From a virus (taxonomy: Duplodnaviria; Caudoviricetes), in the IMG/VR virus record IMGVR_UViG_3300032335_000272, positions 1-26,986 of that record: a stretch of DNA of 26,986 nt, one strand, 5' to 3'. The notes under the pieces are model-generated. The model saw nothing but the letters and a program-made list of their open reading frames with translations, was not told the origin of the DNA and ran no database searches. Numbering within the stretch: position 1 is the first letter of the stretch; every line of letters starts with the position of its first letter. This document shows positions 8,257 through 26,986 of the stretch, piece after piece. The position numbers and the translations under genes were made by a program.

Positions 8257-11122
8257 GTTTAATTACTCCGCTTAAATCCGTTTTGAACTCATAGACATAG
8301 ACACTTGCTATGCCTGCCGCGGCCTTCCACCCCGTACCAAGGCGTACCTTTTTATCGGTACTAACTAGAACACCGCTGTTCTTAAGCGCTTCCTCAAAAG
8401 CTTTGACACCCGCCTGACCTTTGGCAAGGAACTCTTTAAGTGGGGTCTTAGCAATCTGCAGTATCCCTAGATCAGCATCCGCTCGCATGATCAACGCATT
8501 GCGCGGTTCCATTACAACTTTGTTATCACGGAAAGCCAACATACTTGGCAGGTTTTGATTTAAGAATTCACCAAGCATATTCTCGTAGTCGATGCCGCGA
8601 GTTGTGTTTTGTTTGATGATCTTGCGAGTCTCAACTACCATGTACTGATATACACGTTCAATGTCGATCTTGATAACACCTTCTTCTACGGCAATTTCTC
8701 CGGCAGCAAACACAGCCGAATATGAACTGTTGATAAAACGATACTCGCTTGAGTTAGTCAGGTCTGCGGTTAGGCGTAGTCTCCAACGGTTAATGCGTTC
8801 ACGAATTTCTTCTTCGGGGATGTTGAGAAGGGCGGCAATGAAGCGTGGGCCTGCATGACCGTAGTGAAAGTGAAACGGCTCAAACATCTCTATGCCGCGT
8901 GCATCATCTAACTCAAAGCCGGGAACCATAGGCTTCTCAACTGTGAACTCCAAGTAGCGTACTTCTTCTGCGCCCACGTTCTTCTTGTACTGAGCAATCT
9001 TCTCCCGTGCAGATTGGTTCATGTTAACCATAGACAATAAACAAGACATAAGCGATAGAGGGCGCTCGGCGTTTGTTGATGATTGCAACCTGATCTTGCC
9101 TCGACCTGCGCATAGCGCATAGATTAATTTAGACAGTGACTCACCTGTAGCATTAGAGAACTCATCCAAACCAAACATGTGATTCTTAAAAGTCAGCATG
9201 CGTTGAATCAAACCAGCGTCCGTTGCTTCCATGACTGCGAGAGGTTTAGGCTCGCCATAGACACTTAAACCAGCGTACAACGCACCTGATTTGCCAACGC
9301 CTGTATCACCGAGCAAACCTACAACTGCGCCATGTACGTTTGTGTACTTGAGCAGGGGTGAGCCTAAAGCATATAACAATGCAAACGCATGGAACTCATA
9401 GCCCGGATCGTTCAACATGTCAGCCGCTTTGCGCCAGCCTTCGTACGTACCCTTAGTTCTGAGTAGATTAACAATCGGTTTAGACAATGGTGATGGAGGG
9501 CATTCGCTAACCTTTCCATTTGGGTGATACTCTTTTTCACCAAGCACATAGCCTGTCTCTGTCCAACCTTGCTGGATGCGCATGGTCTGAGCAGAGTCTG
9601 TCTCGATCATATAGTTGCCCCATTTGGTTATGTATGTCATTAGTAATTGCACTTTCGTTGGGTTGTCGAAAAACACGCCATTGCTGGACATGATCTTTTT
9701 AAATTCCTCTTGTGCCGATACAGACTTCATCGGCAACATAAACTCCCTTGCACCGTCGCGCGGCAATACAAGCCTCATGTTTAAACATTCGCCGTCGTAT
9801 GGACTGAACAAACGCTTTGTTGGGTAGAGGTCGTACTTAGTTAGCAGGATTGGGTCATGCTCTGTGATTGATCCATCCTTGTTTGTTTTAGTTGGTGGCT
9901 GGTAATAGATACCGCCATGCACACCTTTAACAAACGGCTTTAGGAAGTCCGGTAGGTGGAGAGGTGCGTCTTTCGGAATCTCCCGAATTGGCTCCGCTTC
10001 ATCGGTGGCGTCTTGCGTTGGTTCGGGTTGGACTGGGGCTTTGGCGATAAGGAATGTTTTTCCAAGGGCGTATGGTGATCTAAACTTTCCTTTGAATTGG
10101 CATCCCTCACATCCTTTTGGATTCTTGTGTTTGAATCTGTCTTCAATAACAGTGCAGGTATGCGTTCCTTCGATTGCTTTGCGTATCTCATTGCGCTTTC
10201 TTTCCGTTTCTTCGTATGTATATTTTTTATACCCCTTGGATGCTTCGTGTGTTGCTTCATCGGCGTCGACACAAGCTTCGGCAATGGTTAGCACTGAGTG
10301 CCACATAGGTTCATCAGCATTGTTTTGATGCATCAAATACCATTTAAGTTGATTACATCCCTTACCTTCTAAGCTATCAATAGCAATCTTGTTAAAGCGA
10401 AACTCGTAGTTGTCCATGCCAAGCATCTTGCGAGTCTCGTCATCGATTCCTTTCTGAACGCTCTTTAAACTAAACACACTGTCATCCGGGGCCGCATCGA
10501 TCTGAACACTATCTAATAGCGCAGTCAGTTCCTCAAACGGATACGTAATCAAGTCACTGAGCAAAGCGGTTGGTAAAGGCGGAACATTGGGGCGCTTATC
10601 CTTGCCCCAGTTCAACGTGTCAGGGCAACGAATCAATCGTGCCGCATCTGCCGGAACACCGGTGTCAATCTCAAACCCAAGGTCAAGCGCAAGCTTTTTA
10701 AATTTCTCGGCATGGGGTTTCCAAACTGATGTAGCAACTTGTTCGTCAAAGATCCAATACGCATACAACCCTCTCCCAGAGTTGAGACGCACAGGTTCAG
10801 GAAACCCTGAGTCCTTGATGAACTTATCGAGAGCCAACATGCCATCCTCTTGGGTGGCATACGGCTTGTCTTCTCCACAATCAATGTCCAAGAAAAAGGA
10901 CTTGATGTAGATACTGTTTACTGCTTGTCGGCTGAATCCTTCAAACGTGCTAGGTGTGAAGTATGTATTCATGCCTTTTTGAGAGTTGAAATAATCAATC
11001 AGCTCAAGAACTTCGTCTACTGTTTCGCAATAGCGAGGAATGATCTTCCCCTGCATATTGATCCCTGCCACGCAGTAGTAGCCCTGCGTAGGCGATATTG
11101 TTTCGTAAAATTGTTTAGTCAT
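8192..11122 (-). CDS. Primase-helicase fusion: AEP/RepB-like primase, Cys cluster and DUF927 (Cch-like) helicase
   Basis: FFLDIDCG (DxD), NSGRGLYAYW, DAARLIRCPDTLN, HTC...CEGC, Walker A GDTGVGKS, Walker B FGLDE. Start moved to ATG 11122 (MTKQFY) because the longer TTG-started ORF runs through a GC hairpin. Confidence 0.8.
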   Translation of the reverse strand: MTKQFYETISPTQGYYCVAGINMQGKIIPRYCETVDEVLELIDYFNSQKGMNTYFTPSTFEGFSRQAVNSIYIKSFFLDIDCGEDKPYATQEDGMLALDKFIKDSGFPEPVRLNSGRGLYAYWIFDEQVATSVWKPHAEKFKKLALDLGFEIDTGVPADAARLIRCPDTLNWGKDKRPNVPPLPTALLSDLITYPFEELTALLDSVQIDAAPDDSVFSLKSVQKGIDDETRKMLGMDNYEFRFNKIAIDSLEGKGCNQLKWYLMHQNNADEPMWHSVLTIAEACVDADEATHEASKGYKKYTYEETERKRNEIRKAIEGTHTCTVIEDRFKHKNPKGCEGCQFKGKFRSPYALGKTFLIAKAPVQPEPTQDATDEAEPIREIPKDAPLHLPDFLKPFVKGVHGGIYYQPPTKTNKDGSITEHDPILLTKYDLYPTKRLFSPYDGECLNMRLVLPRDGAREFMLPMKSVSAQEEFKKIMSSNGVFFDNPTKVQLLMTYITKWGNYMIETDSAQTMRIQQGWTETGYVLGEKEYHPNGKVSECPPSPLSKPIVNLLRTKGTYEGWRKAADMLNDPGYEFHAFALLYALGSPLLKYTNVHGAVVGLLGDTGVGKSGALYAGLSVYGEPKPLAVMEATDAGLIQRMLTFKNHMFGLDEFSNATGESLSKLIYALCAGRGKIRLQSSTNAERPLSLMSCLLSMVNMNQSAREKIAQYKKNVGAEEVRYLEFTVEKPMVPGFELDDARGIEMFEPFHFHYGHAGPRFIAALLNIPEEEIRERINRWRLRLTADLTNSSEYRFINSSYSAVFAAGEIAVEEGVIKIDIERVYQYMVVETRKIIKQNTTRGIDYENMLGEFLNQNLPSMLAFRDNKVVMEPRNALIMRADADLGILQIAKTPLKEFLAKGQAGVKAFEEALKNSGVLVSTDKKVRLGTGWKAAAGIASVYVYEFKTDLSGVIKHVEEEPTGGNATGRTGVDLSV

Positions 11123-11141
11123 TGGATCGCAGAGACAATTA

Positions 11142-11161
11142 GGGCGGGAACTAGCCCGCCC
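11142..11161 (-). terminator. GC-rich hairpin, possible weak terminator/attenuator upstream of the primase
   Basis: GGGCGGG-CTAGTT-CCCGCCC on the - strand (7-bp perfect stem), intergenic, followed by TAATTGTCTCT (poor U-tract). Confidence 0.5.
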
Positions 11162-11172
11162 AACTAGCAAAC

Positions 11173-11490
11173 TTATTTGCTTTTGAATGTCTTACGAACT
11201 TGGGCTAGATAGACTTTTGCTTTCTTAAGATTAACTGCTGGCAGAATCCCCGTCTTAATGTCTTCCTCGACCTTATTCATAAATCGTTCAATAGCGCCAT
11301 GTCTGGCACTACGGATCGGGTTACCACGAAACCAACTGTGTATCGTCATGCGTGATACACCGAAGACAGGGGCAAGGTGTTGAGTAGGTAAGTTTGCTCT
11401 TACACAAACACGCGCTAACTCAGTACCAAGCCGACCATCTAATTCGTTGTCAAGGGCTTGCAGTAATTCCAATCCGTAGGGTCGCGCCAT
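11173..11490 (-). CDS. Helix-turn-helix DNA-binding protein (XRE/Cro-like)
   Basis: LPTQHLAPVFGVSRMTIHSWFRG fits an HTH. Start placed at ATG 11490 (MARPYG), 1 nt after the upstream stop. Confidence 0.7.
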   Translation of the reverse strand: MARPYGLELLQALDNELDGRLGTELARVCVRANLPTQHLAPVFGVSRMTIHSWFRGNPIRSARHGAIERFMNKVEEDIKTGILPAVNLKKAKVYLAQVRKTFKSK

Positions 11491-11491
11491 A

Positions 11492-12331
11492 TTATTTTTT
11501 AGTCCACTTTTTGATGATCTCTGTTGCATCCTCAACGGGTTCAACAGCGGCCTTCTTCACGCTCTCGCGCTTCACGGGTTCAGCTAAAGCAGGTGCTTCA
11601 ATTTCATCGGGTGAGTCAGCTTGGAACACTGTTAGTTTGATAGCGTTTTCTGCCGCCATGCTTTTGCTCTGCTTCATGATTGTGTCTTTCAACTCAGGCG
11701 GTACTGCTTGAGCAGGAGAGAACAACACGCGAGGCACAGGAGCCTTGATATCAAATTGCATCTTGGTAATGATCTTACCTGCACTCACGTTGTTGTTAGC
11801 CAACATTTGAATGAAGGGACGGAAAGGCCATCTGCCGTTTTCCTCTTTACCAAACGCGCTCATCGCTGGCAACACCAATTGATACACATCGCCTGCGGGG
11901 TCGTTAGGCAATACCACGGCAGTGCGCCATGACAACTTGCACTTAGTTCCGTTACCGCCCTGACCGCTACCCTTAACAGAGTTAGGGCAGTTGTCGCACG
12001 AAGCCGCTGCCGGCGTTGGTACAGATGGGTCAGGCTTCTTAGAGTCACTAGACCAGCAAGAAGGTGAAGTCTTCTCGCCCTCACGATATGCGCCTTCGTA
12101 ACAAGTACGTGACGCTTCGTGTGCCATCTTTACAAAGATGACGTTCATCCAATTCTCTTCGTTGACGCTGACTTCCTTGCCGCCAACGATTTTGCGGAAC
12201 ACTCGTCCCTTGATCGAAATGCGCTTAGAGCCTTTCGTTGCACCGCCTGCTACAGCAAGTGTATCTTCGTCAAGCCCCTGTTCAATAAGGGCTGGGTTAT
12301 TCTCAAAAAAGTTTGCGAGTTCGTTACTCAT
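11492..12331 (-). CDS. Putative single-stranded DNA-binding / replication protein with a Cys cluster
   Basis: 279 aa with RISIKGRVFR, CWSSD...CDNCP...C and a charged flexible tail. Lies between helicase and primase. The function is inferred from family resemblance and context. Confidence 0.55.
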   Translation of the reverse strand: MSNELANFFENNPALIEQGLDEDTLAVAGGATKGSKRISIKGRVFRKIVGGKEVSVNEENWMNVIFVKMAHEASRTCYEGAYREGEKTSPSCWSSDSKKPDPSVPTPAAASCDNCPNSVKGSGQGGNGTKCKLSWRTAVVLPNDPAGDVYQLVLPAMSAFGKEENGRWPFRPFIQMLANNNVSAGKIITKMQFDIKAPVPRVLFSPAQAVPPELKDTIMKQSKSMAAENAIKLTVFQADSPDEIEAPALAEPVKRESVKKAAVEPVEDATEIIKKWTKK

Positions 12332-12363
12332 TTGTTTCTCCGACTGTTTTAAAACTGATTTAA

Positions 12364-12765
12364 TTAAACGCGCTCAGTGGCTTTACGTACTGTAATAGCC
12401 ATCTCACGCATGGCATTCACTCCGGGCGGTAGACCATCGTCCTTATGCTCAGACATGAATTCTTTGAAGTTCTTTTGATGGATGCGACGCTCAAACAAAT
12501 CGACTGCACCGTGCGCAAGAACAAATTCTTTAAAGTTGTCCCAATCTGTACAGAAGAAACGTTCTTTGACTGAACGCATGACTGTGCCGTGTTGGGTGCG
12601 GATGCTGTCCGCATTGACTTCACTACAAGCTTGTAGCATTACCTTCTCTAGACCTTCCATGTCACCTTTGAGGGCTTCATCTTGTTGTTCAAATAATGCC
12701 TTGAGTTTTTCACGTTCGTTGCGAATTGTCAAGTATGCTTTTACTAATTCTTCCATGTTAACCAT
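12364..12765 (-). CDS. Hypothetical replication-module protein (N-terminal coiled coil)
   Basis: 133 aa from ATG 12765, overlapping the helicase stop. LVKAYLTIRNER...SIRTQHGTV...DWDNF...LFERRI...PPGVN. Confidence 0.65.
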   Translation of the reverse strand: MVNMEELVKAYLTIRNEREKLKALFEQQDEALKGDMEGLEKVMLQACSEVNADSIRTQHGTVMRSVKERFFCTDWDNFKEFVLAHGAVDLFERRIHQKNFKEFMSEHKDDGLPPGVNAMREMAITVRKATERV

Positions 12766-14335
12766 TGTCTTCAATCTCCAATTCAAATTTATACAGATCA
12801 ACTAATTTATCGTGCAAGTCAACTTTATTTTGCAACATCTCAAAAACTTTGCGCTCAACTTCTGAGCCTTGAAGATGTACAACCGTCATTTTGTTTTGCT
12901 GACCGTAACGATCCATTCGTGCAATGCACTGCAAATATGTTTCCACTGACATAACGGGCGACCAAAACACAACTGTGTTAGCCGCGGTAAGTGTTACGCC
13001 ATGTGATGCCGCTTGTGGTTGAATGATTAGCACACGCGGGTCTGTTGCTGTCTGAAACCTATTAAAGATTTCACTGCGCTCTCGCGCTGATACGCTTCCT
13101 GAAATGATTTCGTTTGTGTATCCCTCCTGAGTTAAAAAATTACTAACGACTACAATTGTGTGTCGATACGGCACGAACACAATCACCTTATGCTTGGTCT
13201 CTTCTACAACTTCTTTCAATGCTTGCTTACGCGATGAGATATCAAACTCAACAACTTCACCGCTATCGGTGTAGACTGCGCCACCCGAGATCTGCAATAG
13301 CTTCGTAAGGCTTGCCGCGGCATTGACTGTGCTGATCTGCTCTCCTGCCGCTTTGATCAGCATATCCTTCTTCAAGTCACGATAAAACTTTTGTGCTTGA
13401 GGTGTCAGGGGGACTTCCCTAATTTGGTAAACAACATCAGGTAAGTCAAGGCACTGCGCTTTCTCAAAGCGGATAGCGGGCTGAAGTGCATTAAAAACTG
13501 CGTCGCGTGCAGTACTCTTTGGCAACCACTTGAACCGAGTCACTTGTTGCATGACTTTATCGCGCCACGCCGTTACGAATTTAGGTACACCGCTTGGATT
13601 GACCAGTCGGGCTAAACCGAATGCGTCAAGCGGAGACTGCGAGGCAGGCGTACCTGTCATCATCCACAGGTATGTATCCATCTTTAGGATGCGAGCGAGA
13701 ATCTTCCAGCGTTGTGTTGACGTTGTTTTGTACGCGTTAGCTTCATCAATGATGATGAGGTCAAAGTTACCCTCTGAGATTTCTTTCTGCACTACACCCA
13801 CGCCATCGTAATTAATTACAACGAAGTCGTAGCCACCCTCAATAACTTTTTTACGTTTGCTTGCAGAGCCATGCGCTACGCCACATGTGCGGTGCATTGC
13901 TGTCTTGAACAGATCGGCTTGCCACGCAGAAAACATAATGGAAAGAGGACAGATCACCAGCACTCTGCGGATGATGCCTTTGTTCATTAGGTAGTCAGCC
14001 GCCCATATCGCGGCAGATGTTTTGCCTGTACCTGCTTCGTTAAAACAGAATGCGCGTCTGCGCAGAGAAAGAAACTCTGATGTTTCTTTTTGGTGAACGA
14101 AAGGTTGAAACAAACCCGGCCAGTTGTATTCCTTGAGTATCGGTGAGGGAACTTTTACATCACGCGGTACGAGAGTAGCAAGGCGCTCCATCTCGGGCAG
14201 TTCCCAATTAACTAACACTTCAGACAATCCTGATTCAGTGTTTAGAATCTCACTCTTCTCGATACACTTGCAGATGAACTCAGCCTCTTCAGTCGGGGCT
14301 TTGAATTTTACTGCGCTATCTAAAACTACTTGCAT
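12758..14335 (-). CDS. SNF2-like superfamily 2 helicase
   Basis: Motif I FNEAGTGKT, Ia VICPLS, II IIIDEAN, III MTGTP, V QPQAASHGVTLT, VI QCIARMDRYGQ. RBS AAGGA upstream. Confidence 0.9.
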   Translation of the reverse strand: MQVVLDSAVKFKAPTEEAEFICKCIEKSEILNTESGLSEVLVNWELPEMERLATLVPRDVKVPSPILKEYNWPGLFQPFVHQKETSEFLSLRRRAFCFNEAGTGKTSAAIWAADYLMNKGIIRRVLVICPLSIMFSAWQADLFKTAMHRTCGVAHGSASKRKKVIEGGYDFVVINYDGVGVVQKEISEGNFDLIIIDEANAYKTTSTQRWKILARILKMDTYLWMMTGTPASQSPLDAFGLARLVNPSGVPKFVTAWRDKVMQQVTRFKWLPKSTARDAVFNALQPAIRFEKAQCLDLPDVVYQIREVPLTPQAQKFYRDLKKDMLIKAAGEQISTVNAAASLTKLLQISGGAVYTDSGEVVEFDISSRKQALKEVVEETKHKVIVFVPYRHTIVVVSNFLTQEGYTNEIISGSVSARERSEIFNRFQTATDPRVLIIQPQAASHGVTLTAANTVVFWSPVMSVETYLQCIARMDRYGQQNKMTVVHLQGSEVERKVFEMLQNKVDLHDKLVDLYKFELEIEDNG

Positions 14336-14357
14336 ACTATCCTTGAACTAAATTGTT

Positions 14358-14482
14358 GGTGTCAAGCCTGACGCATCTGAAAGTCTGCGGGGAGTCCGCG
14401 ATGCCGCTTGACTGACGAAGTTATAAGGGTCAAAATGCTTTAAAACCCCCCTTGTGACTCACCCTCGCCTTACAGTCACACC
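14358..14482 (-). ncRNA. Candidate structured RNA / 5' leader of the helicase operon
   Basis: Non-coding gap of 174 bp in an otherwise gene-dense arm. Nested inverted repeats GTCAAGC/GCTTGAC, GCATC/GATGC, GCGG/CCGC, TGTGACT/AGTCACA and terminal GGTGT/ACACC. Begins right after a consensus promoter. Confidence 0.5.
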
Positions 14483-14485
14483 TAA

Positions 14486-14513
14486 AGTATATGGGCAATA
14501 ATTAGTTTGTCAA
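14486..14513 (-). promoter_or_regulatory. Sigma70-type promoter
   Basis: TTGACA (14513-14508), 16-bp spacer, TATACT (14491-14486). The -35 overlaps the TGA stop of the HNH-like gene. Confidence 0.7.
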
Positions 14514-14824
14514 GTTCTCTTTCGTTCTTTTTTGCTTGTTTCTGATACGAGGTTTCCCTTAGAGTCGCGTTTAAATGAACGATTCTTCGCCACGCTTTGA
14601 ATGCGCAATCCATCTTTGTTTGAACCGCCTTTGTCTAACGCTCTAACGTGCGACACATCTTTGCCCTCACGTCGATCAGCTTTGCCATTGCCGTTAGCAT
14701 CTTCTCCGGTCTTGTCGATTGAACGACGACCACGCTGACGTTCCATGCGACGCTCATGTTCGCCACGAGCAACTTGTTGCTCATACTCTTTCTTGTAGGG
14801 TCTAGGCTTGTTGACGTATGCCAT
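14510..14824 (-). CDS. HNH endonuclease-like protein
   Basis: 104 aa, basic. GKDVSHVRALDKGGSN...LRIQSVAKNRS matches small phage HNH proteins (DVSH in place of DVDH/DVHH). Confidence 0.7.
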   Translation of the reverse strand: MAYVNKPRPYKKEYEQQVARGEHERRMERQRGRRSIDKTGEDANGNGKADRREGKDVSHVRALDKGGSNKDGLRIQSVAKNRSFKRDSKGNLVSETSKKERKRT

Positions 14825-14837
14825 ATGTATCCTTTAA

Positions 14838-15497
14838 TTATTTACCTTTGTAGTGAGTGCAGTCAGACACTGGACACCAACCGCAGAGTGGTGTAGGGTT
14901 CTCTTGCCACACGCCATTCTCATACGAGAGTTGCAGGCGTTTTAGTTGGGGCGCAAAGTCATCCCAGTACTTGTCAATTCTCTCACGCTGATATTCAGAA
15001 GTCACGAAATCGTTGTGAGCAACAAACAGAAGCCCTGCCTTGAAATGCGTGACCTCGGGGAAATACTCAAACCCCATCAACGCCATGAGTTGAAGCTGTT
15101 TGGGATCGGGGTACTTGTTGCTTCCGGTTTTATAGTCAACGATATAGCCTTGATCACCGTCGACCACCATCAAGTCGGCAATGCCACGCACCCAGTAATC
15201 CTTTGCGCCAAAAGTACAGGGTTGTCTGTTTATGGTCAGTGCCATGCGGTACTCAGGGTACTTGACGCCTTCCATGTCGCGCAGTGGGTCTAGCTGTTTA
15301 CCAAAGTGTTCGTAGTTTTTAGCTAGGGGTTTACCCTCCTTCACGTAGTCTTCTAGCGCACTATGAACTTGAGTCCCATAACGCATCTCGACTGTAGCTT
15401 TCTTCTCGTAACGCTTGAGGACTTTAACCTCGTTGTACTGCCGTGGGCAGTTAACAAAGTCCTTGAGACCCGAATAAGACCATTTAATTTCTTGCAT
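14838..15497 (-). CDS. PD-(D/E)XK exonuclease, Cas4/RecB-like
   Basis: WSYS...CP, GTQVH, RGIADL, IVDYKTG, QLQLMA and C-terminal CGWCP...C (1+3 Cys arrangement typical of Fe-S nucleases). Confidence 0.85.
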   Translation of the reverse strand: MQEIKWSYSGLKDFVNCPRQYNEVKVLKRYEKKATVEMRYGTQVHSALEDYVKEGKPLAKNYEHFGKQLDPLRDMEGVKYPEYRMALTINRQPCTFGAKDYWVRGIADLMVVDGDQGYIVDYKTGSNKYPDPKQLQLMALMGFEYFPEVTHFKAGLLFVAHNDFVTSEYQRERIDKYWDDFAPQLKRLQLSYENGVWQENPTPLCGWCPVSDCTHYKGK

Positions 15498-15533
15498 ACT
15501 GAATCCTTACTAAAGTTTTTAGAGAGCTAAATA

Positions 15534-17432: not shown

Positions 17433-17442
17433 AGCGAACTCC

Positions 17443-18430: not shown

Positions 18431-18750
18431 TTGTTCCCCTTTGCTCTATCCATAACTCTTTCCATAGCGTCGCTGTAACTCATGCCCAGTGCTTTGTTTA
18501 TCAACACCAAAGCCGAATCAATAATTTCGTCATAAACGCCGGGGTCTACTTCTTTGATAACATTCAGCGTTATCTTTGCATCTTCTAATGCCTCGATGTC
18601 CGCGCTGTTAACTTGCCACATCAACTCAATGTCGGCTTCAATGGTGTCAAAGTATGGCTTGATGGGTTTAAGCGGTTTAATTCGATCAAACATCCGTTTG
18701 CCTATCTCGTAGAACTCTTTGTTTTTTCCTGTGCTGTTGTCTATGCTCAT
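18427..18750 (-). CDS. Hypothetical phage protein
   Basis: 107-aa ORF with ATGA overlaps on both sides and an AAGGA RBS. Confidence 0.65.
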   Translation of the reverse strand: MSIDNSTGKNKEFYEIGKRMFDRIKPLKPIKPYFDTIEADIELMWQVNSADIEALEDAKITLNVIKEVDPGVYDEIIDSALVLINKALGMSYSDAMERVMDRAKGNK

Positions 18751-18986
18751 TGGTAGTCCTTACATAAATGGTGTTTAGCATCTTCACGATCTGCCCATGT
18801 ACCTGTGCAACCCGTACATTTAAACTTCCCTGCGGTGATTGAAAACTTACCCGTTAATCTTGGCTCGGGTAGTTCAAGTTGTTTGGCGTAAGTGTGCTCT
18901 TCAACAAGGGCGGCAAAGTGTTCAATGTCGCCGTGCAGGGTCAGGCCGTTGTCCTCGATCAGTTTAATAATTTCGTCTTGTGTCAT
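18747..18986 (-). CDS. Hypothetical protein with a C-terminal zinc-finger-like motif
   Basis: 79 aa from ATG 18986 (MTQDEIIK) after AAGGAG; FKCTGC...HHLC. Confidence 0.6.
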   Translation of the reverse strand: MTQDEIIKLIEDNGLTLHGDIEHFAALVEEHTYAKQLELPEPRLTGKFSITAGKFKCTGCTGTWADREDAKHHLCKDYQ

Positions 18987-19129
18987 GTGTTTTTGCTCCT
19001 TAGTTTGGCTTCTGCCAATTCCAAAATTTCGTACACGGTTTTCCCCCATGTAATTTCATTCTTCTCCTCATCCGTCAGCCCAACCCAAGGGCGAACGTAG
19101 TCTTGAATGTCATCGTCATCTTGTGTCAT
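18983..19129 (-). CDS. Small hypothetical protein (48 aa, WVGLTDEE type), absent from the ORF track
   Basis: Manual translation MTQDDDDIQDYVRPWVGLTDEEKNEITWGKTVYEILELAEAKLRSKNT. RBS AGGAG, ATGA overlaps at both ends. Confidence 0.7.
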   Translation of the reverse strand: MTQDDDDIQDYVRPWVGLTDEEKNEITWGKTVYEILELAEAKLRSKNT

Positions 19130-19356
19130 TTCTTTCTCCTATACTCTAAAACTTCATTTAACAATCGTTCCATCTCGTCAGCCGCCATCAAATGAAACGG
19201 ACTGATAGGTTTGTGGCTTGCCATTGAACGCATCATGCCTATGGTTGTTCTTGCTGTTGTCTCACTCAGAGGGGCGCGTCTTCGTGGTTGTCGGGGTTGA
19301 ACTTTGGAACTCGGTTGCCCTTGTCCTTCGGGTTTGGAAATGGGGGGAAGGGCCAT
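19126..19356 (-). CDS. Hypothetical phage protein
   Basis: 76-aa ORF tiling the operon (1-nt gap upstream, ATGA overlap downstream). Confidence 0.6.
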   Translation of the reverse strand: MALPPISKPEGQGQPSSKVQPRQPRRRAPLSETTARTTIGMMRSMASHKPISPFHLMAADEMERLLNEVLEYRRKK

Positions 19357-19357
19357 G

Positions 19358-19552
19358 TCATTCGCCTAACTCCGCAAAGATTTCGTTGAGAATTGTTTTA
19401 ACTTGGCTGACCATCTCGGCTTTTGAAGCAGGCGCTGACATGACCATCTTGATACTTGCCAACGCCTTGTACATAGCCTGACCCTTCAATGCAAACAGCA
19501 ATGCGTCCTCATCGTCGGGGTAGTCAAACTCAAGAACTGCTTTGCTGTGCAT
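19358..19552 (-). CDS. Hypothetical phage protein
   Basis: 64 aa, KAVLEFDYPDDEDALLFALKG, in operon context. Confidence 0.65.
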   Translation of the reverse strand: MHSKAVLEFDYPDDEDALLFALKGQAMYKALASIKMVMSAPASKAEMVSQVKTILNEIFAELGE

Positions 19553-19709
19553 ACAATCTTTCTATTGGTTTAGCGGTTAGCCATCGATCGCCTAAACGTA
19601 GTACGGCTCGAACCCATTTACGTTGGTTATGTTGATTGATATGTTCGGGAACCATATCGTTGTTATAGATTACTCTTGCCTTGCGACGCAGTTGTTCTGT
19701 AGTCATCAT
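19530..19709 (-). CDS. Small hypothetical protein (59 aa), absent from the ORF track
   Basis: Manual translation MMTTEQLRRKARVIYNNDMVPEHINQHNQRKWVRAVLRLGDRWLTAKPIERLYAQQSSS. Fills the gap exactly and overlaps the VRR-NUC stop (ATGA). Confidence 0.7.
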   Translation of the reverse strand: MMTTEQLRRKARVIYNNDMVPEHINQHNQRKWVRAVLRLGDRWLTAKPIERLYAQQSSS

Positions 19710-19999
19710 TTCAGTCTATCTCCTATAAGTTGTTTAACTAAATGCATGTTGGACTCATCAATGACAAGCGCAATGCCTCCGGCTAACTCGATTGCATTGA
19801 GATTGTGTAGTTGCAAAGCAGTTGGCTTGTTACCTCCCGCCTTGCACTCAATGCCAACGAACTTGCCTGAGACACAAACTAATAGATCAGGCACACCTGA
19901 ATTGCCAAATCCACCTGTTACCGGCTTTACGACGTAAGCCTGCATCTCTTTCAATGCTTGGCTCACAACCTTCTTAACCTTTACTTCGGGTGTACTCAT
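19706..19999 (-). CDS. VRR-NUC domain nuclease (Holliday junction resolvase-like)
   Basis: TPEVKVK...GFGNSGVPDLLVC...FVGIECKAGGNKPTALQ...AGGIALVI. Confidence 0.85.
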   Translation of the reverse strand: MSTPEVKVKKVVSQALKEMQAYVVKPVTGGFGNSGVPDLLVCVSGKFVGIECKAGGNKPTALQLHNLNAIELAGGIALVIDESNMHLVKQLIGDRLK

Positions 20000-20372
20000 G
20001 TGTCATTCTCGATTCGTTCATGGGGACTAGATCTCCTTTCAATTCATCTATCTCCTTCTCTGATATAACTACCACATAAGCATCATTTGCCCATTGCCAG
20101 CCGATGTCGTTAAGACGTGGGTCATGCGTATTGATATAGATATCGGTTGTAAATGTCATCGTGCTGCGTTCTCGTATCACATGCTTGGGCGCGGGTATGG
20201 CGTTAATCATCGCAATTCTTTCTTTGATGCAAGTCGGCAGTCTTTCTCTGTCGTACCTTAAAATCATAGTATCGCCAATGAATACCTCGTATAGTTCTCC
20301 GCGATCAAACACTAGAACCGGAACGCGATAATGATCAAGTTTCTTCCCATATGTTACTGCGGTCAATAACAT
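19974..20372 (-). CDS. Hypothetical protein
   Basis: 132-aa ORF tiling the operon; no motif recognised. Confidence 0.65.
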   Translation of the reverse strand: MLLTAVTYGKKLDHYRVPVLVFDRGELYEVFIGDTMILRYDRERLPTCIKERIAMINAIPAPKHVIRERSTMTFTTDIYINTHDPRLNDIGWQWANDAYVVVISEKEIDELKGDLVPMNESRMTHEYTRSKG

Positions 20373-20373
20373 G

Positions 20374-21282
20374 TCAGCCCTTGCTGATCAGTAATACAGG
20401 GTGATCAATTGCTTTACCGCCTCGGTATGCTTTGGCAATACCCAAGTCATCCCAATGCTGATAGTTATAGGACTTGCCTGAAGCAACCTCCATCTCTCTG
20501 AGCATGAGTGTCGCCACCTTCAAGTCGGGATACTTCTCAAGATCGGGAATGAACTGAGGCTCTGACTCTAATACCAGTTGCTGATCTCCGTCACCACGGC
20601 CTTGCGCTAGGTAGTAGCCATAATCAAGAGGGCATAGTATATCCATAGACTCAGCGAACTTGTGGTAGCCAGACGCTCTCTCAGTTGCTTCTCTCATCTC
20701 CATCTCCAATTCTGCTCTAATCTTTTTGTAGCGATCAGTATCCGAGATTGTCAAGTTTGTGTCAACACCCAAAGCAAAGTTTAGTAACTTAAATTCATCA
20801 TACGCATCTTTCAATCTATTGGGCATATGTTTCTTATTAGCAATAACGCCTAGAAGCTGACGGCTCTGTCTTTTGACATGCTCATGCAGATACTTAGTGT
20901 TAGTGATATCCTCATTCACCTTCTTGAGTGCAGTAAACAAAGAAGATAACTTAGCAGATATGCGGGTATGTCCGAATTCCCTATCGTGACTTCTTGGTAT
21001 ACGCGAGCGATCAATGTTAGGTGAGTAGATAGCAAACAACTTCGTATCGTTATCATAATCCTCGCTCTCGCGCAAGAATACATCTGCAACATAGATGCCT
21101 TTGGGCGTTACCATGCGTACACCCTTGTCGCGCTTGGCATTCCATTTGAACGCGGGTAACTCTGTTGTACTGATAGCAAGCAGACCTAGCTTGTGGTTGG
21201 TCTCTGCTATTAATTGCGTCAGCTTGGGCTGATCGACTAAGAACGCTTCGATCTCTGACTTCTTTGCGTGTTCGTAATACAT
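20374..21282 (-). CDS. Hypothetical protein
   Basis: 302-aa ORF with RBS AAGGAGAG; no motif recognised. Confidence 0.7.
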   Translation of the reverse strand: MYYEHAKKSEIEAFLVDQPKLTQLIAETNHKLGLLAISTTELPAFKWNAKRDKGVRMVTPKGIYVADVFLRESEDYDNDTKLFAIYSPNIDRSRIPRSHDREFGHTRISAKLSSLFTALKKVNEDITNTKYLHEHVKRQSRQLLGVIANKKHMPNRLKDAYDEFKLLNFALGVDTNLTISDTDRYKKIRAELEMEMREATERASGYHKFAESMDILCPLDYGYYLAQGRGDGDQQLVLESEPQFIPDLEKYPDLKVATLMLREMEVASGKSYNYQHWDDLGIAKAYRGGKAIDHPVLLISKG

Positions 21283-21292
21283 ATCTCTCTCC

Positions 21293-22351
21293 TTACAGTT
21301 GTTGAATTATTGAACCATTTGCCAACTCAATCTCGCACCCCCACTTACCCAATGACGCTTGCGGGTCATTGCAGTCATAAGTGATCGCCCTGAACGCGTC
21401 CTCCTCATTGATCAACTCGTAGAAGAACTTATTCAAGATGAACTCAAACTCGTAGTCACCCGACTCCACTAGCCTTCGCAACGCCCACTCAGGGTAAGTG
21501 CGCATGCGCGAGATACCACTAACGCCTTTGTATATGGCGTATGTATACAACGCACCAAGCAGATCCTTGTTCGCCATATCCATTACGTACGGCTTTACCT
21601 TATCGGTGATAGGGTCTAGCTTATCCGAGGTCCCGCCCCATTTCTGTTTGTCCCACACCATCCCATGCGCGTAATTCATCTGTATATCCACCTTATCGAA
21701 GTGTGGCTTAACGAACGCTTCAGCATCCTCTGTTATGTCATTTATGAATCTAATGAACGACTTCTCGTCAAACTGACGCACCATGACCTTGCAAGCTTTG
21801 ATCTGATCTGCGTATCTCTTACGGATACCATCAGACAGTTTGCGATCGACCACCCACTTGCGCACAGTGAACCCGTGATCGTCATGGAACTTTCCAGTAT
21901 CTAAGTTCCAACGCATACCTTTGAACAGGGGTAGCCTTCTCTGATTTGCATACTGAAGATACTCACCGCCATACTTCACAGAAGTACTTATCATTGGATT
22001 ACCATTTACAGGTAAAGCGGTTGTTGACTTAGCCCATAAAGGTACACTTTGCATACCGGCATTGAGCATCCAGTAATCCGACTGATACATTGTCCTAGTT
22101 GTAGCGATCTCAATCGTGTTATCAGAGTGAACGATTGCGAGAGGCGACAGCTTCTCAGCATCAGTGATGTTCTTTGAACTAAGATTCCAATACCACAGTT
22201 CATAAGAGCCATCATTTCTTGGCGTGAAATGCCTTGCGCTGTATTTTCTAAAGCCTAGCGGATACACCTTGTGTCCACGAATCGGGGCTACGGTTGTGTG
22301 GATATCGTAAAGCTTCGTATAATTGATTCTGCCAATAATATCTTCAAACAT
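21293..22351 (-). CDS. Hypothetical protein
   Basis: 352-aa ORF starting 1 nt after the vWA gene stop; no motif recognised. Confidence 0.7.
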   Translation of the reverse strand: MFEDIIGRINYTKLYDIHTTVAPIRGHKVYPLGFRKYSARHFTPRNDGSYELWYWNLSSKNITDAEKLSPLAIVHSDNTIEIATTRTMYQSDYWMLNAGMQSVPLWAKSTTALPVNGNPMISTSVKYGGEYLQYANQRRLPLFKGMRWNLDTGKFHDDHGFTVRKWVVDRKLSDGIRKRYADQIKACKVMVRQFDEKSFIRFINDITEDAEAFVKPHFDKVDIQMNYAHGMVWDKQKWGGTSDKLDPITDKVKPYVMDMANKDLLGALYTYAIYKGVSGISRMRTYPEWALRRLVESGDYEFEFILNKFFYELINEEDAFRAITYDCNDPQASLGKWGCEIELANGSIIQQL

Positions 22352-22352
22352 G

Positions 22353-23591
22353 TCAGTCTTCCTTCATAAGTTTCTTGTGTCCGCTTGGGACTGTTAATGA
22401 TTTGTTCTGTGTGATCAACCACAAAGTTGGTGTAGTGATATCCCATTTGATATCGTTCTCAACGTAGCCATCGGTGAACACGATCACCGCTTCTGCATTG
22501 ATGTTTTTCTTCTTTATGTAATCAGCTACGGCTGACACCCTAGTTCCCCCACCACCCTTGGGCTTTAACATAGATGCCAGTTGTTGATACTCACCTTCGG
22601 TGAACTTCTGCTCGCCCGCGACCATAGTGTCCCACCAAAGCACTCGGACTCCACTCGGTGTAACGCTTTCGCATATGCTTGCCAGTTCAGTAGCAAACTC
22701 TGCCAACTCCACGCTACCGATCGAGCCTGATGTATCGATCGCGACCACCAACTCACCGACTGTCTCGCTGATAGTGCTAGGCAGATACAGATCGTTAGGC
22801 AACATACGACGATTGAACTTGCGCCATGTGTACTCATCCTTACCCACAGAGAACTCAGAGATAAACTCGCGCAATGCTTCACGCCAATCGATCTTGGGTT
22901 CGAGTAACTCTTTGATTGCTCTAGGTGTATCACCACCCATGCTACCCGCGAGGATGCCACCCTCACGCAAGGCTTTGTCGATACGCTCGTCAAGGTCTTT
23001 GGCTTCTTGCTCAGACAACTCTTGACCATCGCCTGTCATGTCATGCTCATCGAAGCCTTCACCATACTCGTTACCAACGTCATCGCCATCTTGCGGTTCA
23101 GACCCCCCTGATCCATTACCTTTACCTTTACCATCACCTTCCCCACCCTTGCCACCTTTCTCTTTGAGGAAGTTGTAGATCTCAGTGAATGACCAATCCT
23201 TAAACTGTGGGCTATAGATAGCGCACTTAGGCAACGTCACAAGGTTCGGGTCTTTCGCCTCGATATCCTTGATGATTGAGTTAACAACAAGATCAGCGGC
23301 TACATTCGCTAGCTTCTTGTTCTCCTTCCACTTGGATCTATGATGCGGTAGATGTTTCAATCCCACATGAAGATTCTCGTGCAACACGACTGCGTTATGC
23401 TCGGGATCACTCAGGGCATCCATGAACGCACGACCATAGCGTTTGTTAACGCCATCAGTGAATGCGGTCTTGACCTTCTCTTCTACTGACGATTCGCCTA
23501 GCATAATCACGCCTGAGTACAGGGCGGTATGCTTGCTCTTCATCAGCTTGATATGGCTTCTCTTAAGCCTTGTTTCTGCATTGATAGTCAT
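22353..23591 (-). CDS. DUF2201-like metallopeptidase domain plus vWA domain protein
   Basis: TAFTDG, VLHENLH (HExxH), ANVAADLVVN, Gly/Asp-rich linker, MIDAS IDTSGS, GGGGT, VFTDG. Confidence 0.85.
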   Translation of the reverse strand: MTINAETRLKRSHIKLMKSKHTALYSGVIMLGESSVEEKVKTAFTDGVNKRYGRAFMDALSDPEHNAVVLHENLHVGLKHLPHHRSKWKENKKLANVAADLVVNSIIKDIEAKDPNLVTLPKCAIYSPQFKDWSFTEIYNFLKEKGGKGGEGDGKGKGNGSGGSEPQDGDDVGNEYGEGFDEHDMTGDGQELSEQEAKDLDERIDKALREGGILAGSMGGDTPRAIKELLEPKIDWREALREFISEFSVGKDEYTWRKFNRRMLPNDLYLPSTISETVGELVVAIDTSGSIGSVELAEFATELASICESVTPSGVRVLWWDTMVAGEQKFTEGEYQQLASMLKPKGGGGTRVSAVADYIKKKNINAEAVIVFTDGYVENDIKWDITTPTLWLITQNKSLTVPSGHKKLMKED

Positions 23592-23608
23592 AGCTTCTCT
23601 CCTTCTGA

Positions 23609-24685
23609 TTAAGTCATTAAGTCATAGTTATCGATAGCCCACTTCTTGATGCGATCGTTGTGACGTGCAAGCTTGGTCTTGCTACGCAACATCATCGTAA
23701 AGAAGATAGACTGAACCTCTGATGATTTGATTCGGTCAACGAACTGCATGAACTTGCTCAACTCATCGTGTTCTTGAACAACGTCGATTGCTTGGAACAT
23801 GATCAACAGCAACGCTGATACATCATCGTTAGGACAATCAATAGTCAATGGCGCTTTGATAATGTCCTTCACGTCTGCGACCTTATGCTCTAACGCCAAG
23901 AAAGCCGCCATATCTCTAGCACATGCTTCACCGACAGTACCCGCCAGTGCAACCATCGTCGCATTCTCTCCGATCAGGTCAGTCTGACGCACAATAACGT
24001 CAGCCCGAGCCAATGAGCGAGGCGAGGCGAACTGCTTCGTAGTGCTACTAGGTTTGAAGATATATGGATTGTCTTCTTGCTCACCATCCAAGTACGACGC
24101 CATGACCTTGGGATACCGCGCTACCCATGAACGAATCACACGACTAACGCCATTAGCACCAGCCCACTGATTCCACTCGGTAGCGGTTGGCTTGCGCATC
24201 TGTACCTTACACACACGATTGGCGACGTGCGCTAACATGTTGTCGCCAACACCATCTGTGGTATTGTTAGAAGTAGCAAACATCAGCGACCCGTAAGGCA
24301 ACGCACGATCACCGACGTAACGCTCTAGCACCATGCGAGTAAACAACACCTGCAACATCTTTGGTGCTTTGAGCATCTCGTCAAGCATGATGACCTTCTT
24401 CTTGCCGTTGTCTATCTTGAACAGATCAGAGACGTAATACTCAAGGGACTTCGACGCATGATTCGGAATCGATGCCGCCACGTCCATCAACTCTTTGTTA
24501 GGACAGTCAACATAGATGAAGTCATACTCATCCTCACCCAACTCCTTGCGCAACGCTTCCAGAATAGATGACTTGCCAACCCCAGGCTCACTCATAATCA
24601 TAGGGGTGAGGTGCGCACCAATGTGCTTCACCAACTTGATACACTCATCGATCGACACCATTGGTGTTGTACTTACTTTAGCCAT
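23609..24685 (-). CDS. MoxR-like AAA+ ATPase
   Basis: Walker A variant SEPGVGKS, Walker B IMLDE, ATSN, ANR arginine finger, SPRS. Directly upstream of the vWA gene. Confidence 0.85.
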   Translation of the reverse strand: MAKVSTTPMVSIDECIKLVKHIGAHLTPMIMSEPGVGKSSILEALRKELGEDEYDFIYVDCPNKELMDVAASIPNHASKSLEYYVSDLFKIDNGKKKVIMLDEMLKAPKMLQVLFTRMVLERYVGDRALPYGSLMFATSNNTTDGVGDNMLAHVANRVCKVQMRKPTATEWNQWAGANGVSRVIRSWVARYPKVMASYLDGEQEDNPYIFKPSSTTKQFASPRSLARADVIVRQTDLIGENATMVALAGTVGEACARDMAAFLALEHKVADVKDIIKAPLTIDCPNDDVSALLLIMFQAIDVVQEHDELSKFMQFVDRIKSSEVQSIFFTMMLRSKTKLARHNDRIKKWAIDNYDLMT

Positions 24686-24717
24686 TTGATTTCTCCCAGT
24701 TAATTAATGATTCAGGA

Positions 24718-24918
24718 TTAGCTGATCCGATTTCTAAGACCTTCCATGTCAACTTCAATAGAGAATGTTTTCTCATCCTCATCGACAGTGACAGTGGCTT
24801 GATTGAGTCCGACCGCAAGTATGGCGCACCTATAGTACTTAGCCATATGATTGGCTTTGTGCCACAGATAGACCATGAACGCGAACGCGCACAGTAAAAC
24901 AATTTCTAACTCAGTCAT
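24718..24918 (-). CDS. Small protein with an N-terminal transmembrane helix
   Basis: 66 aa, IVLLCAFAFMVYLW followed by basic residues. RBS GAGG. Confidence 0.6.
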   Translation of the reverse strand: MTELEIVLLCAFAFMVYLWHKANHMAKYYRCAILAVGLNQATVTVDEDEKTFSIEVDMEGLRNRIS

Positions 24919-24919
24919 A

Positions 24920-25843
24920 TTAGTCCTCGAACAATGATGTATTCAAAGTGAACTTCTCAATCACGTCATCCACTTTGGCTTTCACACTCATGCGCATAGC
25001 ATCGCTATCACGCAACCCCTCAGCATCTACATTCCGTAGTGCTTCTGCTAACGCAACCCTTGCGTTCTCTAACTCCTTGTTGTTAGTTAAGTTGAAATGT
25101 TGCAATGTGTTACACAACTCCTTGGTCTGCTCGATAGTCGTGTCGTAAATCTTGCGCTTACGTTTCTTCTTACCATCGTCAGTTAACTCTGCTTCGTTGT
25201 CACCACATGCGTAGGAGATGCGCTCTGCATAGAGAACCAGACGCGACGCCGCGTCTTGCATGATCTCATCGACCTTGCTCTGTGCTTGCTTCATGTAATG
25301 ACGCTTCAAGTCATCTGCGATCTCAGTCGCGATGTTGTTGCGAAAGTCAGCGGTTGGAACCTCTGTCACATACAGATTGATTTTGAACCGACCACCGATA
25401 TCTTTCTGATCAGGGTAGTCTGATTTGTTAAACATATCGCCATTCTTGAACGCCATGTCAGAGACAATGCTTGGGTATTGCGTCTCAAACTCAGTAATCA
25501 ATTTAGCAAAGGCGACCTCATGCTCACGATATTCCTTCATGAACACCTCGATCGAAACCGTGGGCAAATAGCGCAATGCGCCTTGCCAGTCGTAAGTCCG
25601 ACGCTGAAGCCAGTTGCTGACTGTCTGCCGATAATTGACCAACGACTTGTGCGTGGGATGGTTGGCTAGTAGATTCTTGGTGAAGCGACCGCTGTTCTGA
25701 TCTGCTTTGTATGCGTTAATCACCTCATTAGTGATAGCGCGGTCTTGCTTAGTAGCGCTCCACACATTAACGTCTACGTTGACGATCATGCCTGACGATG
25801 CAAGGCTGATCACATGCTCGGGGGTTTGTAGTTCAAAGTTCAT
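24920..25843 (-). CDS. DUF3150-like protein
   Basis: 307 aa: VNVDVNVWSATKQD, FNKSDYP...RF, NLTNNKELE, LRDSDAMR. Resembles the family commonly seen next to phage AAA/vWA pairs. RBS GAGGAG. Confidence 0.55.
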   Translation of the reverse strand: MNFELQTPEHVISLASSGMIVNVDVNVWSATKQDRAITNEVINAYKADQNSGRFTKNLLANHPTHKSLVNYRQTVSNWLQRRTYDWQGALRYLPTVSIEVFMKEYREHEVAFAKLITEFETQYPSIVSDMAFKNGDMFNKSDYPDQKDIGGRFKINLYVTEVPTADFRNNIATEIADDLKRHYMKQAQSKVDEIMQDAASRLVLYAERISYACGDNEAELTDDGKKKRKRKIYDTTIEQTKELCNTLQHFNLTNNKELENARVALAEALRNVDAEGLRDSDAMRMSVKAKVDDVIEKFTLNTSLFED

Positions 25844-25845
25844 AG

Positions 25846-26040
25846 TTACTCCTCAAAAAAGTTAAACGATATTTCAGTTGGCACAATTTCGTAACCCAAC
25901 TGCTTGACCAACTTCATAGTCGAGTCAGTTAGAGTTACATCTTTTGCAATAGAAGCAAAGATCTTTGCCCTATTACAAACAGGGTACACACGCCTAACCC
26001 CATACTTCTCGGTTATGCGCACAGTGATTTTGTTATCCAT
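25846..26040 (-). CDS. Hypothetical phage protein
   Basis: 64 aa, YGVRRVYPVC...AKIFASIA...TLT...LGYEI. RBS GGAGG. Confidence 0.7.
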   Translation of the reverse strand: MDNKITVRITEKYGVRRVYPVCNRAKIFASIAKDVTLTDSTMKLVKQLGYEIVPTEISFNFFEE

Positions 26041-26053
26041 CAGACCCTCCTGA

Positions 26054-26266
26054 TCAGCGGTATAGACCGCCCTTGTTGTTGATACCCCTGAGATCAGTCA
26101 GGTCTGTGATAAGCATGTAATTGCTTTTGTGCATTGGCGCGATCGTACGTGTTCGCGTACGTGAGTCAGCTTCCCCACATGGCATGCACAGGCGAAAGCC
26201 AGCGTTCGCACGCTTGGCACTGTAGTGATCACCACAGCGATTGCAGATTGGTTTCATGCGAGACAT
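26054..26266 (-). CDS. Small CxxC...CxxC zinc-finger protein (TraR/DksA C4-like spacing)
   Basis: CNRCGD...R...GFRLCMPCG, then APMHKSNY...NNKGG. RBS GAGGT. Confidence 0.65.
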   Translation of the reverse strand: MSRMKPICNRCGDHYSAKRANAGFRLCMPCGEADSRTRTRTIAPMHKSNYMLITDLTDLRGINNKGGLYR

Positions 26267-26273
26267 GGCTACC

Positions 26274-26540
26274 TCACAGGCGGGTTTGATTGAGTGCTTT
26301 GGTCAGCACACGATAGTTAGTAGTTGTCTCACCATCAAGTAGATCACCTTGGATGCACAGGCGCATCTCATACTCAGCGGTGTCTTTGTTGGCGTACACG
26401 TCGAGGATTGTCTCGTTGCATACTAGGATGTACACCTCACGACGCATAGCGTGGCTGATTGCGCTACGCAATGAATGATGTACATTTTCGTCATTGCTGA
26501 TTGCTTGCAAGACGGAATCGATACTCTTGAACTGTCCCAT
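26274..26540 (-). CDS. Hypothetical protein, first gene after the early promoter
   Basis: 88-aa ORF with RBS AAGGA. Confidence 0.65.
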   Translation of the reverse strand: MGQFKSIDSVLQAISNDENVHHSLRSAISHAMRREVYILVCNETILDVYANKDTAEYEMRLCIQGDLLDGETTTNYRVLTKALNQTRL

Positions 26541-26650
26541 AACTGATCCTTTACTGAATTGATAAACTGCGAATCAGGGTTAGCTGATTCAATACATAGA
26601 CTGAATGTGTTGGGCGGTACTGACTGCATATTTCCCGACCCAACAAATAC

Positions 26651-26679
26651 ATTATAACATAACTTTACAAATAAACCAA
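26651..26679 (-). promoter_or_regulatory. Strong sigma70-type promoter with extended -10
   Basis: TTGGTT (26679-26674), 17-bp spacer, TATAAT (26656-26651) preceded by TGn; AT-rich intergenic region. Confidence 0.75.
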
Positions 26680-26715
26680 GCATGTTACATGACTTTTTTT
26701 CGTAGGCGCACTGCC

Positions 26716-26805
26716 TTATGGTCTCCAATAAAAGAGATCAAGTAGTAGCACCATGACTGCTAGCAGAAACAAGACGCGCTCAAACTTATCCCATCGTGTC
26801 ATCAT
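26716..26805 (-). CDS. 29-aa single-pass membrane peptide, absent from the ORF track
   Basis: Manual translation MMTRWDKFERVLFLLAVMVLLLDLFYWRP. RBS GGGAG, ATGA overlap with the upstream gene. Confidence 0.65.
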   Translation of the reverse strand: MMTRWDKFERVLFLLAVMVLLLDLFYWRP

Positions 26806-26986
26806 CTTTTCTCCCTGTTCAACATGAGATCAAAGTCCGGCTCGGTTAAGCCGAAAGTATTCTTCAGATCAGCTACATCTGATTCAAAGATTAAGTGGCT
26901 ACCGCAAGCGGGGCAGTCGTACTGCTTGCCATCGGATAGGGCGATCTTGTACTCAAAGGTATGGTCTGACCCATCACCCTTGGCGC
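26802..26986 (-). CDS. Partial (5'-truncated) hypothetical protein with CPACG motif
   Basis: Frame open from the window end (AKGDGSDHTFEY...YDCPACGSHL...) to TGA at 26802. Confidence 0.55.
   Translation of the reverse strand, partial: AKGDGSDHTFEYKIALSDGKQYDCPACGSHLIFESDVADLKNTFGLTEPDFDLMLNREKR

Follow-up and report, generated by a model that had tools for sequence, protein, structure and literature searches.

Dispersed palindromes in the early arm of a tailed phage and a candidate phage protein that may read them

The window considered here is a 27-kb phage fragment of 26,986 nucleotides (Duplodnaviria; Caudoviricetes), which is the whole of IMG/VR record IMGVR_UViG_3300032335_000272. It carries an array of 16 palindromic sites with the core TCAG-N6-CTGA, spanning 10797..26882 and scattered through the early genes. 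On balance we favour the suggestion that the first early protein of the phage, presumably as a dimer, binds these palindromes; it would repress its own gene and probably block transcript elongation along the early arm. What carries this suggestion can be read from the sequences of the window and its relatives: the array and its limits, its conservation, the position of a site at the -35 of the first early gene, and a link between residue 121 of the protein and base 2 of the half-site.

Only 0.66 copies of the palindrome would be expected from 4-mer counts (Poisson P 4e-17). It ranks top among 256 x 21 gapped palindromes, the runner-up having P 6e-4. When spacer lengths from 0 to 20 were scanned, every one other than N6 gave 0-3 copies. 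An order-3 Markov model of the early arm produced on average 0.54 and at most 3 copies in 300 runs. Twelve copies lie entirely within the 27 genes, whereas 2,000 shuffles among synonymous codons gave 0.70 on average and never more than 4. Spacer counts, shuffles and Markov runs together rule out other spacer lengths or codon bias as the cause of the array. All 15 sites listed in a preliminary description of the sequence are where it placed them; a sixteenth, at 23098, had escaped it. Its further statements that bases 1-10796 hold no copy and that the gaps shrink rightward (from 3,423 to 295 bp) are also borne out. The early arm runs on the minus strand with its promoter-proximal end at the right, so that the sites are densest there. 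The confinement to that arm that it described holds as well: the gene for a 2,508-residue LPD38 protein (509..8035, plus strand), which ends the structural arm on the opposite strand and serves as an internal control, is free of sites, and the sites of relatives are likewise mostly in the early arm.

The full form ATCAG-N6-CTGAT is present at 6 of the 16 sites, and 15 have at least one ATCAG half. Beyond the core, at a distance of 6-7 bp, there is an outer TA in 13 of 32 arms (background 5.5%, P 5e-9), which is also present in the eight relatives profiled. The extended site is thus about 28 bp long, TA-N4-aTCAG-N6-CTGAt-N4-TA, with 11-bp arms and a 6-bp centre (11-6-11). Allowing one mismatch in the core reveals no enrichment (7 such variants in the early arm and 4 in 1-8100), from which it follows that the core is exact. 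The array extends past the window: G001, a relative that is 93% identical to the window across most of the window's length, has 24 sites, eight of them nearer the arm start. The array is real, under selection and family-wide.

Selection can be seen at the DNA level. Compared with the relative G002, 1 of 20 third codon positions in the core is changed (P 3e-5), as against 8 of 18 in the spacer and 1,953 of 4,024 in the background. Among ten close relatives, which are not independent of one another, 1 of 179 core positions differs as against 5,010 of 28,710 in the background. The 6-bp centre varies among copies and drifts at the background rate, while the core is held. In the DUF3150-like gene, the site at 25410..25423 occupies orthologous codons in G001, G002 and G003, and there it takes the forms ATCAG..CTGAT, CTCAG..CTGAG and GTCAG..CTGAC. 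Because both flanks of orthologous sites change together, a trans-acting reader whose preference has shifted may be supposed.

Complete relatives are 62-66 kb long and have genes for terminase, portal, capsid, an SU10-type adaptor and tail fibres. Site counts in the early arm and in the rest of the genome are 24 and 0 in G001, 17 and 3 in G002, 13 and 0 in G003, 9 and 0 in G006, and 12 and 0 in G007. In the complete genomes the array stops before the early transcription unit does, and the late arm of about 40 kb has next to no sites. Over the first 8-10 kb the spacing in three genomes is more even than uniform placement would give (coefficients of variation 0.45, 0.40 and 0.48; P 0.0008, 0.002 and 0.02). 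The half-site is not the same everywhere. Taking the best gapped palindrome in each fetched locus, we found the spellings ATCAG, CTCAG, GTCAG, TTCAS, TCCAC, CCCAC, TACAC, CCTA and TTCGA within one clade of IMG/VR relatives, and GTAT-N6-ATAC, GACA-N3-TGTC and further forms in other clades. A palindrome at P < 1e-5 is present in 78 of 104 sources bearing the candidate reader described below; many of the remaining 26 have little downstream DNA. The GACA-N3-TGTC sites of G011 (38599-46054) and L035 are often paired 16 bp apart, giving four half-sites, in 5' leaders. G014, a record without the left end, has no such palindromic array in its early region despite having the same early genes. In its positions 1-13600 an asymmetric CATT-N5-TCTC (9 copies) tops the list, which may be a mere ribosome-binding pattern.

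The candidate reader is the first early protein itself, of about 195 residues, encoded just past the right end of the window. That this protein binds the sites seems to us quite probable from its position and its covariation with them. In G001 its gene is duplicated (8707-9303 and 9517-10095), and the array starts about 100 bp ahead. The elements ahead of it always follow one another in the same order, namely terminator, GATACCAGTTA box, palindrome, -35/-10 and gene. In 90 of 112 distinct box-bearing promoters of the first early gene, the lineage palindrome ends 1-4 bp before a -35-like hexamer, a count that is partly fitted since the script scored palindrome and promoter jointly; 11 matches are without the box. 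With the palindrome ending so close to the hexamer, its outer TA arm overlaps the -35. The near-invariant GATACCAGTTA box is followed by a GC-rich stretch and stands directly after the terminator, 50-75 bp before the palindrome, with 1-3 cassettes per genome. It is found at 8543, 9359 and 10154 of G001 (L099) and at the equivalent place in most relatives, and it stays constant while the palindrome changes. No clear helical phasing was found between box and palindrome. In L256 (3650-3950) the reader gene lies at a G-rich presumed genome end. Its promoter is present there with no box and no adjacent palindrome, and the arm has a weak GTCAC array.

The reader is basic (median pI 9.15) and is predicted to be all-helical, with predicted local distance difference test (pLDDT) scores of 87.7 for the full model and 95.7 for an N-terminal one. 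With these models as queries, Foldseek matched nothing in PDB or BFVD at E <= 0.001. The best VIA Z scores, 6.0 (full) and 6.3 (N-terminal) at a root-mean-square deviation of about 4, are at the level of common helical arrangements.

Residue 121 of the reader adjoins an invariant Y122 on a basic helix of 36 residues (106-141). Across 117 labelled proteins it goes with base 2 of the half-site. Where the base is T, the residue is K in 90, Q in 3 and A in 1; where it is C, the residue is T in 16 and D in 6; the single protein with base A has N. With 33 representative loci, the leave-one-out balanced accuracy of this column is 0.97, the best of 1,984 columns from seven protein families (the helix-turn-helix, or HTH, protein at 11173 was not among them), and the next best is 0.89. 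Paralogs from different subclades in one genome agree with the rule. When 35 held-out proteins were judged on the promoter site alone, 32 agreed, L258 disagreed, and L190 and L264 were unclear; G008, which was relisted among them, is not counted.

One group of contigs looks like a lineage caught in the act. L279 and L276 are 86-95% identical to L277 in the DUF3150-like protein, the ATPase and both terminase subunits, and 32-33% identical to it in the reader. Six of the 13 TTCA sites of L277 can be aligned to L279, and none of the six is intact there. L279 has instead four new CCTA-N8-TAGG sites near its left end, one of them preceding its promoter.

How could such a protein act? The sites fall into three classes: one abuts the -35 of the reader promoter, others lie 40-60 bp downstream of other early promoters (in the window, 26574 after 26651-26679), and the rest are intragenic. 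Direct binding, dimer formation and repression rather than activation are what we infer here. If the first early protein is indeed the binder, repression appears to us the probable outcome. Sites 40-60 bp past a promoter or inside a gene can hardly activate initiation, which would favour a block to elongation, and repression would account for all three classes with a single activity. The reader would be the first protein made; it would accumulate and then shut the early arm off. At its own promoter it would occlude initiation, and further downstream cumulative roadblocks would stall the host RNA polymerase, most strongly near the arm start. The preliminary description had likewise proposed a two-fold symmetric protein with repressor roadblocks as one role, and this part of it fits the evidence; the three binders that it named do not. 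The purpose might be a timer for the switch from early to late genes, or the silencing of incoming close relatives. Silencing of kin would explain why site and reader continually diverge together. Joint rewriting of about 20 sites in essential genes is costly, which would fit escape from the readers of relatives.

Several observations weigh against this explanation. The reader has no Pfam, PHROGs or fold match, so that DNA binding rests on covariation and position, while its absence from family and fold lists leaves room for a distant relation. The arrays of the GTAT-N6-ATAC clade, of the GACA-N3-TGTC clade and of the cultured phages MinM2 and RHph_TM3_14A go with first early proteins that have no detectable homology to the reader. 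The same motif occurs with readers merely 25-32% identical (G010 and L266; L243 and L250), which means that low reader identity alone does not force a change of motif. The promoter site lies 12 or about 20 bp further upstream in L279, L255 and L257, a near-helical shift that would suit an activator equally well. As to the residue-121 rule, L258 contradicts it, the held-out proteins are for the most part closely similar to lineages used in training, and the column was spotted by eye ahead of the column scan. The link amounts to about four tree changes, with one independent pair on well-supported (starred) branches, so that a sign test cannot reach significance. At the tree level, counts of changes fail to separate the reader from the backbone (12 on the reader tree, 11 on the DUF3150-like tree). 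A purpose in prophage silencing is unsupported, since no integrase was found: Pfam searches of 65 G002 proteins and PHROGs searches of 68 G006 proteins, sets that leave out the largest and the already annotated proteins, gave no match to an integrase, recombinase or RNA polymerase. Nor was there a match to a partition system in these sets, although this leaves room for a system of an unrecognised kind, and a DxDGD-type RNA polymerase motif was not found in the giant proteins of 13 records.

The same phage protein could bind and do something else: it may activate, organise the DNA, or shield the part that enters first, by compaction or by a block to translocating nucleases. The even spacing of about 0.3-0.9 kb, the gradient from the genome end and the distance of the majority of window sites from promoters all suit this, as do gaps between site and promoter of about 2-3, 12 and 20 bp, which are near helical steps. 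However, the promoters are already near consensus and the site overlaps the edge of the -35; in the complete genomes, moreover, the array ends within the early transcription unit and leaves the late arm nearly empty, and shielding from host nucleases alone leaves the repeated rewriting of the motif unexplained. We consider this the main rival, though an unlikely one. Alternatively, a host transcription factor or nucleoid protein might bind, with motif changes reflecting host switches. Such switches could alter both the motif and a host-facing first early protein. Yet base 2 of the motif follows one phage-protein residue better than 1,983 other columns; old sites decayed and new ones arose where the reader gene had diverged in a backbone 86-95% identical, and at least nine spellings exist inside one phage clade. 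Host binding is, in our opinion, rather improbable. The titration of a host factor, one of the roles raised in the preliminary description, is disfavoured for a related reason, as the motif changes together with a phage gene.

Could a different phage protein be the binder? The three candidates of the preliminary description were the HTH protein at 11173..11490 (minus strand), an HTH-DUF3310 fusion (17487..17984, minus strand) and a ribbon-helix-helix-like protein of 60 residues (18039..18221, minus strand). Of 11 relatives, one was found to have the last and four the N-terminal HTH of the fusion, and neither candidate can be upheld. The first does have an HTH and is present in all 11 relatives tested. 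But its second helix is near-constant across motifs, being identical in ATCAG and CTCAG phages and nearly so in TTCAC phages and in GACA-N3-TGTC phages with their other spacer length; the contigs L279 and L276 end before its allele. Binding by another phage protein of this kind is therefore improbable. Ratchet points that pull the genome into the cell would also be evenly spaced and would start at the presumed first-entering end, although pulling should matter most late in entry, whereas the sites thin out along the arm and hardly any lie in the late arm of about 40 kb; we regard this as very improbable. The 28-bp extended site with its 11-bp arms and 6-bp centre has the geometry of dif-type sites, as would befit recombination sites for a tyrosine recombinase. 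That is hardly credible, as the centres differ between copies and drift at the background rate, gene order between the sites is conserved, and no recombinase family was matched in the G002 and G006 sets.

Returning to binding by the first early protein, the closest look-alike in form is the repeat of Cluster O mycobacteriophages such as Corndog, which have more than 30 copies of a 17-bp dyad and no integrase; the account of it in PMC4351075, as far as it concerns the repeat, predicts a dimeric binder and gives no function. Shared with the array here are an exact palindrome, a free centre, many dispersed copies, a density gradient toward one genome end and an integrase not found (PMC4351075). 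About a third of the Cluster O repeats are intragenic according to the same part of that source. The two differ in sequence and spacer, 7-3-7 in Cluster O against 5-6-5 plus the outer TA here (PMC4351075). The Cluster O repeats are moreover genome-wide and the sections on them name no binder (PMC4351075). In the present family each lineage has its own spelling, and covariation between residue and base links a candidate reader to the motif.

The stoperators of Cluster A (L5 gp71, Bxb1 gp69) are, in the relevant part of PMC3029335, asymmetric, oriented and mainly intergenic 13-mers read by an HTH repressor in temperate phages. The repressor binds as a monomer, by the portion of PMC9283540 that deals with it, and the section of PMC6550527 on immunity gives the logic of escape from the repressors of relatives. 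By these partial accounts, the likenesses are many dispersed copies across lytic genes (16 in the window and 24 in G001; 20-30 in Cluster A), one phage protein, a proposed block of both initiation and elongation, and a lineage consensus correlated with reader residues. The sites here are instead palindromes around a free 6-bp centre, not oriented 13-mers, and in the window most of them lie inside genes; the candidate reader could be assigned to no HTH family, and the two protein sets yielded no integrase. Hence the array would work like the Cluster A stoperators yet it is not a member of them. The preliminary description, which had drawn this analogy for its logic, may be right on the working; the asymmetry of stoperators was not found here.

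Phage phiC31 is temperate, and its repressor c binds dispersed conserved inverted repeats. Dispersed inverted repeats bound by a phage repressor are a likeness, the temperate lifestyle a difference. In two Atlas searches no Pfam-bearing cluster came nearer than that of the phiC31 repressor c family, PF25746 (0.77 and 0.76), which is below the level that would make it more than a lead. Of 41 families matched by 38 members of the reader family, 25 were shown, and PF25746 is not one of these.

Cultured phages provide two further arrays: RHph_TM3_14A (L202, a Rhizobium phage) has 28 copies of GTTACC-N6-GGTAAC in 48.9 kb, and MinM2 (L201) has 22 copies of GGTTCAG-N-CTGAACC in 45 kb. They resemble the present family in their early genes (ATPase, VWA) and in having a site ahead of the first early gene, which in RHph_TM3_14A overlaps a promoter-like sequence (read by eye). 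They differ in that their sites are also found in the late arm and that homology of their first early proteins to the reader is not detectable. Literature listings, with subscription journals mostly outside their coverage, gave no description of this motif and reader or of the arrays of RHph_TM3_14A and MinM2.

Why phages that are not temperate should carry scattered palindromes is a question already raised in print for Cluster O, where their function is unexplained. The present family contributes a specific candidate for the reader, the prediction that one residue sets the specificity (K121 for xTCA, T or D for xCCA), and a lineage that seems to be in the midst of exchanging its sites for others. 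The proposal can be tested with one small protein and a 28-bp oligonucleotide, and cultured RHph_TM3_14A and MinM2, with their exact palindromes, are usable at the bench. If correct, it would mean a new DNA-binding fold, a set of repressors and operators that are orthogonal by nature, and a way in which phages of lytic appearance could time genes or exclude kin. A bolder version can be put forward tentatively, as a speculation that we hold unlikely on the whole. A new DNA-binding fold with a readable residue-to-base code would be the master switch of widespread integrase-free aquatic podophages; the first phage in a cell would produce it immediately and silence the early arm of relatives that share its palindrome, and this immunity without lysogeny would drive the repeated rewriting of the reader together with about 20 sites within essential genes.

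The sites in the window, to which no strand is assigned, are distributed as follows, beginning from the left. The one at 10797..10810 is within the primase/DUF927 gene, with its codon position matched in G001 and G002. That at 14220..14233, within the SNF2 helicase gene, is matched in codon position in G001, G002 and G003, its flanks being lineage-specific. Two are within the family A DNA polymerase gene (15689..15702 and 16291..16304) and one within the HTH-DUF3310 gene (17821..17834). The site at 19887..19900, within a gene for an endonuclease of 97 residues, again has its codon position matched in G001, G002 and G003. A gene for a 302-residue protein holds one site internally (21219..21232), and another ends at its stop codon (20374..20387). 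The VWA/DUF2201 gene has two, at 22522..22535, where the aligned column reads CTCAG in G002 and TTCA in G009 and G010, and at 23098..23111, the one added to the original 15. Further sites are within the AAA ATPase gene (23974..23987), across the stop codon of a 66-residue gene (24712..24725) and across the ribosome-binding site and start of a 64-residue gene (26040..26053). The site at 26574..26587 is in a 5' leader, where it follows the inferred start of the early promoter at a distance of about 57 bp, and the rightmost is at 26869..26882. That promoter, read by eye on the minus strand at 26651..26679, is sigma70-like (TTGGTT, 17 bp, TATAAT, with an upstream TG). G001 has a near-identical second copy of it, likewise with a site about 58 bp downstream.

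The early/replication arm that bears the array (8192..26540, minus strand) encodes small genes, a zinc-finger protein, the DUF3150-like protein, the AAA ATPase, VWA, endonuclease, PolA, exonuclease, SNF2 helicase, HTH and primase. Early and late arms converge at 8032-8192, where about 155 bp separate the stop codons of primase and LPD38. The zinc-finger protein (26054-26266, minus strand) is a C4 type of 70 residues that is kept in 10 of 11 relatives and has only a weak zinc-ribbon match in Pfam; we assume that its cysteine pattern resembles that of DksA/TraR.

The closest cultured polymerases, those of the Rhizobium RHph_TM phages and Pseudomonas KPP25, are 34% identical. A repeat of KPP25 that had been considered as an array was rejected as a plain tandem repeat, and the 49 of its 64 kb that were scanned have no palindromic array. 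MinM2, Pag-Yong1 and Pra-JY27 are all 65,014 bp long with an identical match, yet their stated cyanobacterial hosts are three different ones. Matches in prokaryotic genomes number eight, all of them contigs of 1-9 kb in metagenome-assembled genomes (MAGs). L283 and L284, binned in two MAGs of freshwater actinobacteria, are contigs of this family (52% identity in the DUF3150-like protein); they are short and the hint of a host is weak. Five MAGs with related contigs have 1-6 full sites per 1.1-3.8 Mb, which is uninformative. Among the holders listed, none is an RNA one.

Finally, short GTTCTA/TAGAAC or TTGGAACA repeats are numerous at L099:10250-10760, where they surround an AT-rich tract just past the first early genes, and akin tracts are present in G011, L017, L241 and RHph_TM3_14A. 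In appearance this is an iteron-type replication origin with array sites on its flanks.

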